A DNA stretch of 64,000 bases, from positions 57,204 to 121,203 of the forward strand of contig JAQGHF010000004.1 in the NCBI GenBank assembly GCA_028288995.1, read 5' to 3'. Below the pieces are notes generated by a model. The model was not told the origin of the DNA. It ran no database searches and worked only from the letters and a program-made list of their open reading frames with translations. The position numbers and the translations under genes were made by a program. The DNA comes from Candidatus Saccharimonadota bacterium. GTDB taxonomy: Bacteria > Patescibacteriota > Saccharimonadia > Saccharimonadales > Saccharimonadaceae. How positions within the stretch are numbered: position 1 is the stretch's first letter; the number at the start of each line of letters is the position of its first letter. This document shows, one piece after another, positions 7,244-54,024 of this stretch.

Positions 7244-8056
7244 CTACCCCTTTGTTTGATCTATCCGTTTGCGAAGGTCAAGATAAGTATTAGCAGCGGC
7301 CGTATATTCTCTTAGAAAACCTTGGTCAAAGCCATATGTAAGCTTTTTAAGCGCAGAGTCTCGTTCAGCATAGTTAATTGAGATTGCATACTGCCATGCA
7401 GCTGCGCGATCTTTATCAGACGATATTGAATCCTTTAACTCATTAAACTTGGCTTCAGCGACCTGAAACTGAGTCTCTAGGTCATTCGAAGGTGTAGCCT
7501 CTGGTGCAGGTTTGCCAGTTATCATCCCACCAGGGTTCGGAAGAGTTGGAATCTCTTGATCAACGATACGACGTGCAGCTTCACGCATGGCTTTAATCTC
7601 ATAAGAAGTGTATTTCCTGTCGATTTCCGATGGATCTTCAAGGCCTAAAACGTCTTCGATAGCCTCATCGGCGATGTCTTCCTGTGCGTCAGTGAGGAGC
7701 GCACTCTTAACCTCGGGTGCAATAGGAGCACTTTCTGGCTTTTTAACCGCAAACTCCGGAACCTTCATATATCCCTGTGTATCAGTATCCCAACCAGCTT
7801 TTTCGGCCGACTGTCGGTTTGGAGAAATAAGGTTCACTTTTTCACCCTGTTCATTGTAGAAGTAACCCTCAACAATGCCACGAAGCGCCTCACCTTCTAC
7901 TTGTTGGAAACTGACACTTTTTACCGCATCCTCAGTTCTGAACATGATAGGATCCTCCGCAGTTGGACGATTTTTATCCCACTTATTATTAAGCGCTTCC
8001 TCTGAGTATGGGTTTGGCTGCGGTTCCTGTGATGATGGTAAAGATTGTTCGCTCAT
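7244..8056 (-). CDS. Hypothetical acidic soluble protein
   Basis: 270-aa ORF filling the gap; no recognisable motif. Confidence 0.6.
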   Translation of the reverse strand: MSEQSLPSSQEPQPNPYSEEALNNKWDKNRPTAEDPIMFRTEDAVKSVSFQQVEGEALRGIVEGYFYNEQGEKVNLISPNRQSAEKAGWDTDTQGYMKVPEFAVKKPESAPIAPEVKSALLTDAQEDIADEAIEDVLGLEDPSEIDRKYTSYEIKAMREAARRIVDQEIPTLPNPGGMITGKPAPEATPSNDLETQFQVAEAKFNELKDSISSDKDRAAAWQYAISINYAERDSALKKLTYGFDQGFLREYTAAANTYLDLRKRIDQTKG

Positions 8057-49770: not shown

Positions 49771-52700
49771 TTAGTTCTTTTGAAGGCTTAGTTGAAGCGT
49801 TTTGCCTTCAATTGTCAGCGTTTCAGCGTGCGCATATTCGCCGGTTGAGATTGCCCCCGCTAATGTTTCAGCCGCAATTGCTGATCCAAATTCTGTAATC
49901 GCTTGCGCCAGTTCTTCATCTTCAGTCGTGAGGCTGAGGTCAATATGATCGTCAACGTTCAAGCCCGCATTTTTACGAGCTGCCTGTGCGTAGCGAATGA
50001 TTTCACGAGCGTAGCCTTCGCGTTTTAATTCTGGCGTTATTTCAAGGTCGAGCGCTAACTCGTTACCCTGAATAACTTTTTTGACATTCAATTCTTCAAT
50101 CAGGACATCTTCGAAGTTTACGAACTCACCAAGTGTCGGCACCGTAATGCTCGCAAGCGGTTGGCGAATCTTCATCTTTGATGACGCACGAATGCTAAGT
50201 GCCTGATTGACGTACTCGCGAACGGTTTCCATGTCTTTGACGACTAACTCGTTGATGTGACCAACCTCTGGCCAATTTGTGAGGTGAACACTTTCTTCAC
50301 CGGTGAGATTACGGTACAGTTCTTCAGACAAGAATGGCACAAATGGAGCCAAAGCCTGGCTAAGACGAACTAGTACGTAGTGGAGCGTTTGGTAGGCATT
50401 ATTCTTGTCGGTATCGTCCTCCGATTTCCAGAAACGGCGACGTGAACGGCGAACAAACCAGTTACTCGCATCGTCGATGAATGGCAAGATCGGCTTCACG
50501 GCATTTGGAATATCGTAGCCGTCCATGTTCTTTTCAATCTCTTCGATAAGTTGGTGCAACCGACTGACGACCCATTGGTCGAGTGGGTTTGTGAGGTTTT
50601 CTGACGGGTCTTCGAGCTTGCCGTCTTGACTTGGAATGAACTCCCAGCCATCAACTTCAGCATACAGCGTAAAGAAATCGTACATGTTCCATACCATGCT
50701 GAGTTTTCGCGCGACGTCCCCCACTTCCCTGTCTTTCAGGGCAAAATCTTCACCGGAAAGCAGTGGGCTTGAAAGCAGTGTAAAGCGAAGGCTATCAGCA
50801 CTATACTGATCCATCAATAGGTTCGGATCGGTAAAGTTGCCCTTGCTCTTACTCATCTTGAGACCGTCGTTACCTGCGACATTTCCAGTAACAATCACGT
50901 TCTTAAATGCGTTGTGACCAAATAAACCGACGTTCACAGCGTGCACATAATAGAACCAAGCACGAACTTGACCAACGTACTCAACGATAAAGTCACCCGG
51001 GAAATTAGCTTCAAATTTTTCAACGTTTTCAAAAGGATAATGGAACTGCGCGAATGGCATTGAGCCAGACTCAAACCACCCATCGAGGACTTTGTCGATA
51101 CGTGTGTAGTGCACACCATCGAGGTCAAATTCGACGTCATCAACCCATGGGCGGTGATAATCTTCAAGTTCGACGCCCGAGAGTTCTTTTAGTTCAGCGT
51201 AGCTTCCGACCACTTTGACGAGTTCGTTGCCGTCTTTGTCAGTTCCCTTCCAGACTGGCATTGCCGTTGCCCAGAATCGGTCACGTGATAAGTTCCAGTC
51301 GGGTGCAGTTTCAATTGTTTTTTCAAAACGACCGTGTTTGATATGCGGTGGGAACCAATTAATGTGTTCAGCGTTCTCGTCGAGCATCTGCTGGCGCTGG
51401 TTATCAATATTAAAGAACCAACTTGGGTGCGCGCGGTACATCAAACGATGCCCAGTACGTGGATTGTGTGGATATTCGTGACGAATATAATCAATTTTCC
51501 ACACAACGCCGCGTTCTAATAAGGTCTTGGCGATAGTTTTGTTAATCGCCCACACTTCCTCACCAATCCAGTCACCTTCGGTGTACACACCGTATTCATC
51601 AAGCACATGAACGATTGGAATGTTGTTTTCTTTTGCGAAGATAAAGTCCTCTTCACCGTAAGCGGGTGCAAGGTGCACGATACCGGTACCAGATTCGGTC
51701 GTCACGTAATCGGCTGACCAGACTTTGTGGGCGTTTTCACCGCGATCTGCGAAGAGTGGCTCGTATTCGAGACCAACAAGCTCATCGCCCTTGAGGCTAC
51801 GCACAATTTCATATTCTAGTGGCTGATGTTTTTCGTCGGTAAATACTTTTGCAGCAAGATCTTTGGCGACAATCAATTGTTCATCACCAATCTTCACTTC
51901 GACATATTCCACTTCACTATTTACTGCGAGTGCTACGTTAGCGGGAAGCGTCCATGGCGTTGTTGTCCACGCAAGCAAAGAGCTACCAGAAAGGCTATCG
52001 TCAACGATGACACCCTCGGCTAATTGCTTTACTCGACTCTCAATTTGCGCACGTGCATCACGATTTTTCTCCCAGCTTTCACCGCGAGGATCGAGAACAT
52101 TCCACCATACGACGTTGTCAGCATTCAGCCAATCAGGAGTTTGCTCTTTTTCGGCAATATTTACGACAAGATCGTACTGCTGCAGCATGTCTTCAGTAAG
52201 TTTTTGACGTTTGTGACCTGTTACATCAACCCCTACCTCTTCCATAGTTGCCGTCGTTTTAATACTGCCTGGCTTCAATTCACCCAGTATGTCTTCGAGC
52301 GCAACGAGTGTCGTTGCCTCTTCCCAGTGCGCGTCAGGATTGACGCCCGCAGACTCGGCACTGGCTGTTTCTGTGAAATGATTGTAGAAACCCTGAGCAA
52401 AGTGCGAACGACCAGCATTTGAGTAACAGACGAAAAGCACTTTCGCCTCTTTCGACAAATTTGCGGGTTTAGAGTGGTTCTTTAACTTGAATTTCACATA
52501 CACGCTCGGATCCGTGACATTCACATACGCCCCAGCATCCATCGTCACTTCAGCTTTTGAAAGTGGTGTTGCCCACTGCGTGTCATACATAAGGACGCGT
52601 TCACCTTCGTAGATTTTGCCTTTTTCGTAGAGTTCTTTGAATGCCCACCAGACTGACTCCATATAGTCTTTGTCCATCGTGCGGTACGCGCCTTTAAAGT

Positions 52701-53130
52701 CGACCCAGCGACCAATGCGGTCGATTGTATCTTCCCAAAGCGCAGCGTTTGAGACCATACTTTCACGGGCAGTCGTAATGTAATCAGCAAGGCTAATCTT
52801 CTCACCCACGTCGTGACGACTGGTAATACCGAGTTTTTTCTCGATAAAGTTTTCAGCTGGTAGTCCGTGTGTATCCCAACCCCAGACACGCTCGACATGC
52901 TTCCCCTTCATCGTTTGGTAACGCGGCACGGCATCTTTCACAATCGAACTAAGGAGTGTTCCATGGTGCGGCACGCCGGTAATAAACGGAGGACCATCGT
53001 AAAAGACATACGAATTATCTATCGGTCGTTGATCGACTGATTTTTCGAAAGTTTTGTTATCTTTCCAGTAACGAATAATGTCTTTTTCGTATTCGAGTGC
53101 GCGGCGGCGTGTGCCTGATTTGAATTTCAC
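49771..53130 (-). CDS. ileS: Isoleucine--tRNA ligase type 2 with an inserted LMW-PTP/ArsC-like domain
   Basis: FYDGPPF, GWDTHGLP, WTTTPWTLPAN, WNLSRDRFW, GQVRAWFY, KMSKS; GTG start with SD AAGGAG. Confidence 0.96.
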   Translation of the reverse strand: MKFKSGTRRRALEYEKDIIRYWKDNKTFEKSVDQRPIDNSYVFYDGPPFITGVPHHGTLLSSIVKDAVPRYQTMKGKHVERVWGWDTHGLPAENFIEKKLGITSRHDVGEKISLADYITTARESMVSNAALWEDTIDRIGRWVDFKGAYRTMDKDYMESVWWAFKELYEKGKIYEGERVLMYDTQWATPLSKAEVTMDAGAYVNVTDPSVYVKFKLKNHSKPANLSKEAKVLFVCYSNAGRSHFAQGFYNHFTETASAESAGVNPDAHWEEATTLVALEDILGELKPGSIKTTATMEEVGVDVTGHKRQKLTEDMLQQYDLVVNIAEKEQTPDWLNADNVVWWNVLDPRGESWEKNRDARAQIESRVKQLAEGVIVDDSLSGSSLLAWTTTPWTLPANVALAVNSEVEYVEVKIGDEQLIVAKDLAAKVFTDEKHQPLEYEIVRSLKGDELVGLEYEPLFADRGENAHKVWSADYVTTESGTGIVHLAPAYGEEDFIFAKENNIPIVHVLDEYGVYTEGDWIGEEVWAINKTIAKTLLERGVVWKIDYIRHEYPHNPRTGHRLMYRAHPSWFFNIDNQRQQMLDENAEHINWFPPHIKHGRFEKTIETAPDWNLSRDRFWATAMPVWKGTDKDGNELVKVVGSYAELKELSGVELEDYHRPWVDDVEFDLDGVHYTRIDKVLDGWFESGSMPFAQFHYPFENVEKFEANFPGDFIVEYVGQVRAWFYYVHAVNVGLFGHNAFKNVIVTGNVAGNDGLKMSKSKGNFTDPNLLMDQYSADSLRFTLLSSPLLSGEDFALKDREVGDVARKLSMVWNMYDFFTLYAEVDGWEFIPSQDGKLEDPSENLTNPLDQWVVSRLHQLIEEIEKNMDGYDIPNAVKPILPFIDDASNWFVRRSRRRFWKSEDDTDKNNAYQTLHYVLVRLSQALAPFVPFLSEELYRNLTGEESVHLTNWPEVGHINELVVKDMETVREYVNQALSIRASSKMKIRQPLASITVPTLGEFVNFEDVLIEELNVKKVIQGNELALDLEITPELKREGYAREIIRYAQAARKNAGLNVDDHIDLSLTTEDEELAQAITEFGSAIAAETLAGAISTGEYAHAETLTIEGKTLQLSLQKN

Positions 53131-53142
53131 GTTTACTCCTTT

Positions 53143-53343
53143 AAAAAATAAAAATCACTTCTTCTGAATGTCAGAGTCCCTGAATGAGGACGGTTCCATC
53201 TGACTTCCAAAAGAAGTGATTCTTCTTCTAGCGCTTAGTTGATCGCTGTGTCGCCGCGTTCACGTTCGGTTCTACTGTCCCCAAAATAGTATCAAGGATT
53301 TCTTCCGAAGACTCGTGGCTGATGACCACTCAATCGTCTTGCC
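53143..53343 (-). ncRNA. ileS T-box riboswitch, ultrashort-Stem-I (actinobacterial class II-like)
   Basis: Stem I 53308-53340 with AUC in the terminal loop; CUUCGGAAGAA and CAGUAGAACCGAACG blocks; antiterminator GUCAGA-UGGAACC-GUCC / GGAC-UCUGAC; TAAAAT at 53347-53352. Confidence 0.88.
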
Positions 53344-53400
53344 CCTATTTTAGCGCACCCCTACCGCTAAAGTAAAGTGAGTAAAGTCACATGAACAGTA

Positions 53401-54024
53401 CTATGCAAACAGCGCTTGACCGAACTTCAGGAAGACCAGGATAACCATCAACGCGATCCATGCCAGCACGATCATTTGGTGGAAGCCACTTTTGAGGAAA
53501 TACTGCACTTTTGTGTTCAGCGTATCCTTCAATTTGAAGGTGTTTTCTTTCAAGTTAAAGTGAAGATAACTCGCAAGCATGACGGTCATCGACGTCGTCA
53601 CAACCAAGCACCATGGACACAACACTTGGATGACGTACACACTTTGGAAGAAGAGCCAGTAAGAAAACAGGAAGCCGAGAAATAGTGCAATAATTGATGA
53701 GATCAAGAACCAACGAGGCAACTTTGTCCCTGAAAGCCCCAGCACGGCGATGGTGATAAGCACAGGAAATGCTATCAGACCGATAATCATATTCGGGAAG
53801 CCAAAGACGTGTGATTGCCAGGTTTCCATGACCTTAGAACAGTTCAGTACGATATTGATGCTGCACGAAAGCACTGCGTTTGGATCTTGTAAAACCTTAA
53901 ACTTATCAAGCGTCAACACAAATGCCGCAATCAGTGCCGCAATACCCCCAAGTAGCATGAAGCCAAATGTAACGTAACGATAACCCTTTCCGTTTGCACC
54001 TTTTTTGAATAATTTATTGAACAT
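53401..54024 (-). CDS. Vitamin K epoxide reductase (VKOR) family disulfide-formation protein
   Basis: SCSINIVLNCSKV, FGFPN, CPWC. Confidence 0.93.
   Translation of the reverse strand: MFNKLFKKGANGKGYRYVTFGFMLLGGIAALIAAFVLTLDKFKVLQDPNAVLSCSINIVLNCSKVMETWQSHVFGFPNMIIGLIAFPVLITIAVLGLSGTKLPRWFLISSIIALFLGFLFSYWLFFQSVYVIQVLCPWCLVVTTSMTVMLASYLHFNLKENTFKLKDTLNTKVQYFLKSGFHQMIVLAWIALMVILVFLKFGQALFA

Follow-up and report, generated by a model that had tools for sequence, protein, structure and literature searches.

The locus lies on the minus strand of the 64,000-nt stretch of DNA that was analyzed (the window), and its feature coordinates refer to that strand. ileS (49771–53130) encodes a 1119-aa type-2 isoleucyl-tRNA synthetase (IleRS) with the Pfam domains tRNA-synt_1, Anticodon_1 and DUF5915; its best PDB matches are the type-2 entries 8c8u (656 bits) and 1ile (590 bits), against 298 bits for the type-1 entry 1ffy. 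The Shine-Dalgarno (SD) sequence and start (53142–53128) consist of AAAGGAG (53142–53136, with GGAG at 53139–53136) and GTG (53130–53128). Upstream of the leader is a VKOR gene with its stop at 53401, and no separate terminator was found between this stop and the leader. A consensus scan identified a promoter-like site (53376–53347; −35 TTTACT 53376–53371, 18-nt spacer, −10 TAAAAT 53352–53347), which places the predicted transcript start at about the first base of Stem I. Of 62 related leaders, 52 have a TAnWAT hexamer just 5′ of Stem I.

By sequence inspection, the segment 53340–53143 upstream of ileS contains the full set of T-box leader modules: an ultrashort Stem I, Stem II with an S-turn, a IIA/B pseudoknot, AAGCG–Stem III–AA, and A1–UGGAACC–A2, in that order. 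The motifs quoted in a preliminary description of the locus are all present in their places on this strand. The same element precedes ileS in approximately 74 of the 80 closest Saccharibacteria species genomes, the fold of the 241-nt leader has a z-score of −3.4, and every helix carries compensatory changes across Saccharibacteria leaders; on these three counts the element is far beyond chance. TM7i (CP075337, L046) is a candidate for a cultured carrier of the element. The minimum-energy fold of the whole leader pairs promoter-region bases with bases of Stem II (inverted repeat I2), and was rejected for lack of conservation and because the promoter-region bases probably precede the transcript start.

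The decoding half and the antiterminator-type core

Stem I (53340–53308) is 33 nt long and reads AAGAC (53340–53336), GAUUGA, GUGG, the 7-nt loop UCAUCAG (53325–53319), CCAC, GA and GUCUU (53312–53308), with a basal AAGAC/GUCUU helix, a GA (K-turn-like) motif and an apical GUGG/CCAC helix. The specifier loop is the terminal loop, and carries the Ile codon AUC at 53323–53321 followed by a purine (AUC-A). Among 30 aligned leaders AUC is invariant, the next base is always a purine, and the apical helix shows 98% pairing as well as compensatory changes. The Rfam T-box family RF00230 has a long Stem I whose distal platform (AG bulge plus distal loop) binds the tRNA elbow; this is missing here, and the Rfam alignment of one relative (L001) contains a 71-nt deletion of distal Stem I.

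Stem II and the IIA/B pseudoknot, which occur in all but glycine T-boxes, are both present. In Stem II (53307–53267), the base CGG (53307–53305) pairs with CCG (53269–53267), and the S-turn internal loop places AAGAA (53304–53300) opposite AGUAGAA (53276–53270) below a variable apical part. These elements lie in the sequence blocks CGGAAGAA (53307–53300) and CAGUAGAACCGAACG (53277–53263). The base pairs at the foot of Stem II are 100% paired, the blocks GGAAGAA and AGUAGAACC are kept in all relatives, and the Rfam alignment of L001 puts the Stem II blocks on the GAA/AGUA Stem II positions of T-boxes. Stem IIA/IIB (53264–53244) comprises IIA, CGU (53264–53262) with GCG (53254–53252), and a IIB pseudoknot between loop CGC (53258–53256) and GCG (53246–53244), the block CACAGC occupying 53250–53245. 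In a structure-blind MAFFT alignment IIA is 97% and IIB 85% paired, and four of four IIB pairs covary. An F-box-like CGACA spans 53253–53249; in M. tuberculosis, the ileS T-box has CGUCA as its F-box (PMC11297988). The decoding half has, as in other T-boxes, a specifier matching the amino acid of its gene, a Stem II S-turn and a IIA/B pseudoknot with an F-box.

The T-box discriminator has been defined as 5′-RRRxG-Stem III-AA-3′ (PMC7583486), and this arrangement, the 5′ part of the discriminator here, is found at 53236–53205: AAGCG (53236–53232), Stem III, and AA (53206–53205). Stem III itself has 10 bp and −8.8 kcal/mol (5′ strand 53231–53222, loop AAUCA 53221–53217, 3′ strand 53216–53207). 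AAG.G and AA vary little or not at all, AA being kept in 63 of 63 sequences. With an ungapped register of 8 bp, pairing of Stem III reaches 95.4% in 35 distinct sequences, and none of 1000 column shuffles reached this value (86.1 ± 0.9% paired), the covariation being drawn from few sequence groups and measured against a high shuffle background of 86%. Five relatives (L025, L034, L035, L073 and L076) have no Stem III; in these, the outer helix described below pairs with the AAG box.

The antiterminator-type core (53204–53170) is formed by helix A1, GUCAGA (53204–53199) with UCUGAC (53175–53170), and helix A2, GUCCU (53191–53187) with GGGAC (53180–53176), with the 7-nt T-box bulge UGGAACC (53198–53192) between them. 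Across 52 leaders GAUGG.A.C is invariant, and the bulge of the window conforms to UGGN-ACC; A1 is 100% paired with four of six pairs covarying, and A2 94.7% paired with five of five covarying. The bulge had been described as canonical, and UGGAACC is indeed present, but the UGGA of the window departs from the UGGU of 46 of the 52 aligned leaders. The base N is A in the window and one relative (L077, complete genome CP011211), C in four others, and U in most relatives. If the tRNA-Ile has the usual A73 discriminator, UGGA would be a mismatch, which counts against the model proposed below; no tRNA genes lie within the 64-kb window. As judged by the AUC specifier, the conserved modules and the covariation, the sequence supports the earlier assignment of the element as a T-box riboswitch, specific for tRNA-Ile and located upstream of ileS.

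The enclosing hairpin and its U-run

The core is predicted to be enclosed by a terminator-like hairpin (53221–53153; total −33.1 kcal/mol), in which an outer helix of 16 bp (53221–53206 with 53168–53153), visible as an inverted repeat, stacks on the 6-bp A1 helix. The perfect 10-bp pairing of AUCACUUCUU (53220–53211) with AAGAAGUGAU (53163–53154) reported earlier is present, and is part of this longer helix. For its 5′ strand, the outer helix takes the Stem III loop and 3′ strand, so that only one of these two helices can form at a time.

Thirteen modelled outer pairs are 95.5% paired in 69 homologues, one per species, and 12 of the 13 are changed on both sides, in an alignment that had been fitted to this structure; none of 500 shuffles matched the observed pairing, and slid controls were 36–55% paired. 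All 62 distinct homologues show the same hairpin and U-run arrangement with an outer helix of 9–19 bp, and in 62 of 62 sequences the helix takes 5–8 of the last 8 nt of the Stem III 3′ strand. Predicted folds of these 62 sequences depend on transcript length: transcripts ending just past A1 adopt the Stem III fold in 58 of 62 (median −21.5 kcal/mol), and full-length transcripts the long-hairpin fold (median −33 kcal/mol). For the window, the minimum-energy fold switches between transcript ends 53160 and 53155.

Directly 3′ of the outer helix is the U-run UUUUUAUUUUUU (53154–53143), into which the last pairs of the hairpin extend, a predicted intrinsic termination site. The U-run is present in all homologues, and the alignments show little or no variation at three U positions right after the helix. 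A stable hairpin 0–2 nt before a U-run is the layout of an intrinsic terminator; termination itself is a prediction, and use of intrinsic termination by the source organism is assumed. The element escapes a simple terminator scan, for which a “loop” of more than 8 nt is too long, and a hairpin-plus-U scan of 20 kb (40–60 kb) returned 21 terminators against 19.7 ± 4.3 expected, with no excess. The leader sequence was found only in DNA runs of soil and sediment metagenomes; no RNA sequencing run contains it.

We analyzed the complementarity of the core and of the SD sequence to evaluate the two known T-box expression platforms. The 3′ strands of A2 and A1 form a best duplex of only −5.6 kcal/mol with the downstream 70 nt (shuffles −7.4 ± 2.1 kcal/mol, 239 of 300 at least as good). 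No terminator or sequestrator is built from these strands, and the sole strong alternative helix encloses A1–bulge–A2. For the SD region, the most stable duplex with any part of the leader has −8.3 kcal/mol (shuffles −9.0 ± 2.0 kcal/mol); there is no masking beyond chance, and no SD-sequestering OFF helix of the kind found in actinobacterial translational ileS T-boxes. Moreover, conservation of the element does not continue past the U-run, and unrelated accessory genes with their own SD stand between the element and ileS in approximately 21 species. Because the U-run is found in all homologues, unrelated genes follow the element in these species, and neither the SD nor the A1/A2 strands have a partner beyond chance, we favor termination over SD masking. 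The expression platform is thus unusual and terminator-like, as the preliminary description had it, with a covarying outer helix and an abutting U-run; what had been missed is its reuse of the Stem III 3′ strand.

Relation to known T-boxes and origin of ileS

The closest described counterparts are the ileS T-boxes of Actinobacteria (M. tuberculosis, M. smegmatis and N. farcinica), which precede the same gene, encoding a type-2 IleRS. They share with the window: (i) an AUC specifier presented by the terminal loop of a Stem I that has no distal platform; (ii) the Stem II S-turn CGGAAGAA ... CAGUAGAACCG, the IIA/B pseudoknot and a CGUCA-type F-box; and (iii) RAG-x-G, Stem III, AA and A1–UGGNACC–A2. 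The known actinobacterial ileS T-boxes control translation, with a sequestrator formed by the 3′ strand of the antisequestrator and the SD (PMC7583486, PMC11297988; Sherwood et al. 2015, Battaglia et al. 2019). The window differs in having no SD sequestrator and in having the outer helix and U-run, which are absent from two actinobacterial leaders examined; it also belongs to a different phylum (Saccharibacteria/CPR), and its leader is A+U-rich. With the canonical transcriptional T-boxes of Firmicutes (RF00230; B. subtilis tyrS and glyQS) it shares the presumed output, a terminator blocked by uncharged tRNA. In those T-boxes, the 3′ half of A1/A2 serves as the 5′ strand of the terminator, so that either the terminator or the antiterminator can form, but not both, whereas the terminator of the window holds an intact antiterminator and excludes Stem III; the window also does not have the long Stem I with its elbow platform. 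To our knowledge, the terminator or sequestrator of every described T-box uses the A1/A2 3′ strands and destroys the antiterminator. Transcriptional T-boxes have been argued to need a long Stem I for fast tRNA capture, and an ultrashort Stem I, as in the window leader, is typical of translational T-boxes (PMC7583486).

The actinobacterial character proposed earlier, an ultrashort Stem I with dependence on Stem II, is borne out by covariance-model searches with two models, R1 and R2. R2, built from 30 Saccharibacterial decoding domains only, matched a Pseudonocardiaceae ileS leader (L082, 442–560) end to end over model positions 1–109 (25.9 bits, E 7.7e-5, search space 67 kb), and the common blocks are visible in both actinobacterial leaders; R1 matched these two leaders only over AA–A1–bulge–A2. 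The two leaders (L081 and L082) come from contigs of N-terminal IleRS fragments, found with a 62-aa IleRS probe; at a third actinobacterial locus (L083), the available space is too short for a leader. R2 also gave a weak match at window positions 7553–7657, which is inside a 270-aa ORF and has broken Stem I pairs, and was set aside as chance. The label “class II” given to this type in the preliminary description does not appear in the text of the TBDB preprint.

Over the whole window Rfam had no match at the gathering threshold (93 bits for RF00230), the leader being well under this cut-off, and Rfam matches with E ≤ 10 on 53050–53450 were limited to chance hits of microRNA and sRNA families on the long hairpin. 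The leaders of relatives were matched below threshold (22.8–38.9 bits, 7 of 19 loci below E 1), and RF00230 aligns the leader of L001 end to end (E 2e-7). A genuine Pseudonocardiaceae ileS leader scores only 17.3 bits and a Brachybacterium-like leader is missed; since genuine actinobacterial leaders also fail, the RF00230 cut-off is uninformative for the short-Stem-I subclass. Standard Rfam annotation misses this whole subclass, and R1 and R2 together recover it. In the searchable literature there are no T-box reports for the Saccharibacteria/CPR lineage.

Acquisition of ileS and its riboswitch from an actinobacterial host, as suggested in the preliminary description, is unsupported. The best 120 IleRS homologues are all of Saccharibacterial type (at least 67% identity), and the next representatives of 50%-identity IleRS clusters are 43–47% identical; among the nearest non-Saccharibacterial clusters 2 of 10 carry any name, and the only phylum named is Peregrinibacteria. 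The G+C content of ileS is that of its flanks, and the T-box is near-universal in the group. N-terminal identities to the actinobacterial IleRS fragments reach 54–64% over approximately 80 aa, a range not comparable with the full-length values. An ancient common origin with the actinobacterial element is possible.

A proposed switch between Stem III and the outer helix

Based on these observations, we propose, as the probable reading, that a tRNA-Ile-sensing T-box controls ileS by transcription attenuation through a non-canonical Stem III/outer-helix switch. By analogy with known T-boxes, AUC in the terminal loop of the ultrashort Stem I of the nascent leader would bind the GAU anticodon of tRNA-Ile, and the 3′ NCCA of the tRNA would pair with the UGGN bulge between A1 and A2. 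A1–bulge–A2 would be kept in both states, the contest being between Stem III and the outer helix, whose 16 bp join the loop and 3′ strand of Stem III to the purine-rich strand just before the U-run. Stem III and its flanking AAGCG and AA purines would act as the charge-sensing discriminator. In the ON state, docked uncharged tRNA-Ile would hold Stem III and the purine latch, so that the last-transcribed strand is excluded and RNA polymerase proceeds into ileS. With charged tRNA or none, the weak, A–U-rich Stem III would be displaced, the long hairpin would close at the U-run, and transcription would stop (the OFF state). Recent single-molecule work reportedly places the charge-sensitive step at the docking of Stem III and the purine latch. 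For the ileS T-box of M. tuberculosis, base pairing of a charged-tRNA mimic with the bulge persists as the linker is undocked and Stem III shifts away (PMC12647780).

The switch between Stem III and the outer helix leaves out the five relatives in which Stem III is absent. These relatives keep the outer helix and U-run, which suggests that competition by Stem III is not strictly required, and the same structural data would also fit attenuation in which bound tRNA blocks the outer helix directly, through sterics or A1/A2 stacking, with Stem III as part of the sensor rather than a competitor. We consider this unlikely: the outer helix overlaps the Stem III 3′ strand in 62 of 62 Stem III-bearing sequences, and the tRNA-binding bulge is approximately 22 bp away from the hairpin base, a long way from the closure next to the U-run. 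The same five relatives bear on a translational T-box of actinobacterial kind, in which uncharged tRNA-Ile would free the SD and the long hairpin and U-run would be incidental, since their A1/A2 3′ strand GCUCCU is, as read by eye, complementary to their AAGGAG SD. The decoding half is, moreover, homologous to that of actinobacterial ileS leaders acting on translation, and its ultrashort Stem I is of the type common in translational T-boxes (PMC7583486). Against this, the SD of the window finds no better-than-chance complement in the leader, the conserved element ends at the U-run with a different gene and SD next in approximately 21 species, and the A1 3′ strands vary between groups without a matching change in the SD, which makes translational control distinctly improbable.

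The near-continuous duplex of approximately 22 bp might instead act mainly in RNA processing or stability, as with an RNase III site, or as a constitutive terminator of the VKOR gene, with the position of the T-box core being secondary. RNase III reportedly cleaves a T-box leader in S. aureus (PMC7913692), and the VKOR gene has no other terminator before the leader. These roles would leave the constant use of a Stem III strand by the helix unexplained; the conserved U-run abuts the helix, and the −10-like hexamer, which 52 of 62 relatives also have, separates VKOR from Stem I, and we accordingly give them little credence. Finally, the UGGA bulge in place of UGGU and the missing Rfam match of the window could point to a decayed relic that has lost tRNA sensing. 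However, the functional positions are all kept across approximately 70 species, each helix has compensatory changes, and the low Rfam score is shared by the genuine actinobacterial leader; decay is therefore very improbable.

For the preferred reading, attenuation through the Stem III/outer-helix switch, we judge the chances about even that it represents a third T-box expression platform, in which the OFF helix spares the antiterminator and displaces Stem III, docking of Stem III with its purine latch is what is read out, and an ultrashort Stem I serves transcriptional control in a CPR lineage. The T-box is the textbook example of an RNA that recognizes which tRNA it has bound and whether that tRNA is charged. 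If the proposal is correct, the leader would be a natural design in which the antiterminator survives and Stem III is contested, and would provide an independent test of the idea that docking of Stem III and the linker reports aminoacylation. It would also mean that a T-box without an elbow-binding platform can work during transcription, contrary to the kinetic argument in current reviews, and would extend T-boxes to Saccharibacteria. Saccharibacteria are reduced epibionts that obtain amino acids from their hosts, and because of this dependence, sensing of tRNA-Ile charging may be among the few nutrient-responsive controls that they possess.

Locus, gene product and conservation of the leader

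On the minus strand, a VKOR-family gene ends at 53401 and ileS begins with GTG at 53130; the 270 nt separating them contain the leader (approximately 53340–53143), and all T-box motifs listed in the preliminary description are found there by reading the sequence. A promoter-like site (TTTACT, 18 nt, TAAAAT; 53376–53347, minus strand) is located about 7 nt 5′ of the first base of Stem I, and a TAnWAT hexamer occupies a comparable place in 52 of 62 related leaders. No tRNA or tmRNA genes were found anywhere in the 64-kb window (1–64000).

Downstream of the leader, the ileS reading frame (49771–53130, minus strand) encodes a type-2 isoleucyl-tRNA synthetase (IleRS) of 1119 residues, the best solved relatives of which are 8c8u (656 bits) and 1ile (590 bits); the type-1 S. 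aureus enzyme scores 298 bits. A PF01451 domain (low-molecular-weight phosphotyrosine phosphatase/ArsC-like; Pfam, E 1.7e-9, 38.5 bits) is inserted at residues 231–371 (52018–52440, minus strand), between a VKFKL strand and the start of the editing domain, LLAWTTTPWTLP, and keeps an intact C-X5-R-S motif (CYSNAGRS). Most of the 120 homologues listed are about 953 residues long and lack this insert; six are longer (1112–1148 residues) and align over the full query, with PF01451 present in P0016, P0091, P0092 and P0113, and absent from P0052 and P0072.

Relatives were collected with the first 220 IleRS residues as query against a set containing a single genome for each GTDB species. The best 80 of the 548 found (ileS loci, L numbers) are Saccharibacteria, bar three records labelled Dongiaceae, Parcubacteria and Nanosyncoccaceae. 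By eye, the same leader lies directly 5′ of ileS in 53 of these 80, and R1, a covariance model of the leader 3′ half, recovers it in about 74. Invariant or nearly so are the AUC codon plus a purine in the 7-nt terminal loop; the blocks GGAAGAA and AGUAGAACC; AAG.G; the AA 5′ of A1; GAUGG.A.C; and three U's 3′ of the hairpin. At position N of the UGGN bulge, the window (53195, minus strand) and L077 have A, four species (L007, L037, L068, L074) have C, and the rest have U; UGGUAAC replaces UGGUACC in L004, L006, L009, L027, L029 and L078. In many relatives (L001, L004, L007, L014, L018, L021 and others), though not in the window, a further small hairpin, e.g. GGAC-G-CCUUUAUUAGG-U-GAGCGAC, separates the Stem I basal helix from the GA motif and makes a three-way junction. 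Some relatives carry lineage-specific insertions of 15–60 nt in the loop of Stem III (L058, L059, L061) or at the top of A2 (L011, L023, L043, L049, L079); these leave both stems intact, and similar insertions are reported for translational T-boxes (PMC7583486).

Assignment of the leader to the T-box family

Base pairing in the decoding half was counted in a structure-blind MAFFT alignment of 30 leaders, where the Stem I apex is paired in 98% of cells (covariation in 2 of 4 pairs), the Stem II base in 100% (2 of 2), Stem IIA in 97% (1 of 3) and the IIB pseudoknot in 85% (4 of 4). For this half as a whole, the observed pairing was met by 0 of 500 shuffles, and slid controls were 25–40% paired. 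A1 and A2, counted over 69 discriminators in a model-fitted alignment, are 100% and 94.7% paired, with covariation in 4 of 6 and 5 of 5 pairs, respectively. Stem III is 95.4% paired over 8 bp in 35 distinct sequences, placed in an ungapped register anchored on AAG.G and AA; column shuffles gave 86.1 ± 0.9, and the observed value was met by 0 of 1000. The leader features agree with published T-box anatomy, both in the discriminator motif, 5′-RRRxG-Stem III-AA-3′ (PMC7583486), and in the F-box, which is CGUCA in the M. tuberculosis element (PMC11297988).

Rfam 15 assigned no family at gathering score in the whole 64-kb window, and its T-box model, RF00230, gave no match to the 401 nt around the leader even at E ≤ 10. 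On leaders of close relatives, RF00230 gives end-to-end alignments at 23–39 bits (E 2e-7 for L001 in a 321-nt search), and it matches 7 of 19 related loci at E < 1. The alignment omits 71 distal Stem I positions and assigns GAA/AGUA to Stem II, CG..CGUCA to Stem IIA, AAG.G and its hairpin to Stem III, and UGGUACC to the antiterminator bulge. RF00230 does worse on two genuine actinobacterial ileS leaders, one from Pseudonocardiaceae (L082; 17.3 bits) and one Brachybacterium-like (no match); its failure thus reflects the short-Stem-I subclass as such, and does not speak against T-box identity.

The proposal that the element is of actinobacterial type holds for its tRNA-binding parts. All 109 positions of R2, a covariance model built from Saccharibacterial decoding domains only, align to the Pseudonocardiaceae leader (25.9 bits, E 7.7e-5 in 67 kb), and both actinobacterial leaders share the Saccharibacterial layout and, in part, its words (UCCGG-CUAUCA-CCGG, CCGGAAGAA, CAGUAGAACCGGG, CCGUCACAGCC, GAGUG-Stem III-AA and GGGG-UGGUACC). 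R1 matches them locally over AA-A1-bulge-A2 only, leaving the flanking outer helix and U-run unmatched. The Pseudonocardiaceae leader contains GUCCCCG twice 3′ of the bulge (L082 600–650), so that Rfam and R1 disagree on the A1 3′ strand; the two choices may correspond to alternative antisequestrator and sequestrator states of this leader.

The leader has every testable sequence and structure feature of a T-box except the one defining the switch mode, and we regard it as almost certainly a member of the family. Full-text searches found no paper that brings together T-box and riboswitch with Saccharibacteria, the candidate phyla radiation or Patescibacteria, and no description of a terminator enclosing an antiterminator; in the TBDB preprint, the isoleucyl translational model is applied to Actinobacteria only.

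A putative expression platform enclosing the antiterminator

In the window, A1 (GUCAGA/UCUGAC), the UGGAACC bulge and A2 form the tip of one long hairpin (predicted energy −33.1 kcal/mol), the base of which is a 16-bp outer helix (53221–53206 with 53168–53153, minus strand) running directly into UUUUUAUUUUUU. Stem III, itself 10 bp with a predicted −8.8 kcal/mol, supplies the 5′ strand of this helix from its loop and 3′ strand. In folds of successively longer transcripts, Stem III plus A1/A2 (−22.5 kcal/mol) is predicted up to 53160, and at a transcript end of 53155 the fold flips to the long hairpin (−31.4 kcal/mol). Among 62 distinct homologues, the outer helix comprises 9–19 pairs and in every case takes 5–8 of the last 8 nt of the Stem III 3′ strand; transcripts cut after A1 are predicted to adopt the Stem III fold in 58, and the median predicted Stem III energy among homologues is −5.6 kcal/mol. 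The outer helix is 95.5% paired, with both sides changing in 12 of 13 pairs, in a structure-fitted alignment that inflates pairing somewhat; its pairing was met by 0 of 500 shuffles, and slid controls were 36–55% paired. Stem III and the outer helix are thus conserved, covarying and mutually exclusive structures; the tRNA-end-binding core is intact in both, and the U-run follows the outer helix.

Both known kinds of platform are absent in the window: no downstream partner for the A2/A1 3′ strands was found beyond chance (−5.6 vs −7.4 ± 2.1 kcal/mol), nor any partner within the leader for the Shine-Dalgarno (SD) region (−8.3 vs −9.0 ± 2.0 kcal/mol). Together with the enclosing, covarying helix and U-run, this bears out the earlier suggestion of an unusual expression platform. 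Five loci (L025, L034, L035, L073, L076) have variant leaders 5′ of ileS that lack Stem III. In this group, a conserved UAAGUCCC (AAG) box pairs with GGGGC just 5′ of the U-run, and the A1/A2 3′ strand, GCUCCU, could base-pair with the SD (AAGGAG); these leaders may therefore differ in working, using SD masking or a dual mechanism.

Proposed mechanism and origin

In T-boxes, the NCCA end of uncharged tRNA pairs with the bulge; binding of this end depends on Stem III and the purines on either side of it, which together form a steric filter against aminoacyl-tRNA (PMC7583486). With a charged-tRNA mimic, the M. tuberculosis ileS T-box keeps the bulge pairing, while its linker undocks and Stem III moves off (PMC12647780). 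The Saccharibacterial terminator would read out precisely this docking/undocking step: (i) a docked, latched Stem III would resist invasion by the last-transcribed strand, letting polymerase pass the U-run, and (ii) an undocked, A-U-rich Stem III would be displaced, and the hairpin would terminate transcription. The conserved element stops at the U-run and is followed by unrelated genes in about 21 species, an arrangement more in keeping with a portable transcriptional device than with one tied to the SD. Against the model weigh the current thinking that transcriptional T-boxes depend on a long Stem I to capture tRNA quickly (PMC7583486), and the finding of no excess of simple intrinsic terminators in 20 kb of genome scanned. 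The UGGA bulge of the window (UGGU in most relatives) is a further weak point, as are, for Stem III displacement, the five relatives without this stem. On balance, we consider transcription termination to be the probable output, and lean, with less assurance, towards the full Stem III-displacement model.

Transfer of ileS and its riboswitch from an actinobacterial host, as first proposed, is unsupported by the IleRS identities, the G+C content and the near-universal presence of the leader in the Saccharibacterial clade. The best 120 IleRS homologues listed are of Saccharibacteria type (67–93% identity); representatives of the next 50%-identity clusters fall at 43–47%, no group clearly standing out as nearest, and the single one with a phylum name is from Peregrinibacteria; and in G+C content ileS (47–49%) does not differ from the flanking sequence. 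An ancient origin in common with Actinobacteria, in either direction, would be consistent with the T-box subtype and type-2 enzyme that the two share.

In the roughly 21 species with unrelated genes after the U-run, the leader lies 250–1100 nt upstream of ileS, with a variable accessory gene between the R1 match and ileS (L003, L019, L023, L026–L028, L030, L032, L038, L040, L041, L044, L046, L053–L055, L062, L067, L072, L077, L079). Judging from inspection of the sequences, their products include CYTH-like, GNAT-like, NUDIX-like, ArsC/Spx-family-like, Tag glycosylase-like and HAD-like proteins. Placed between the putative T-box terminator and ileS, these accessory genes are presumably also under tRNA-Ile control.
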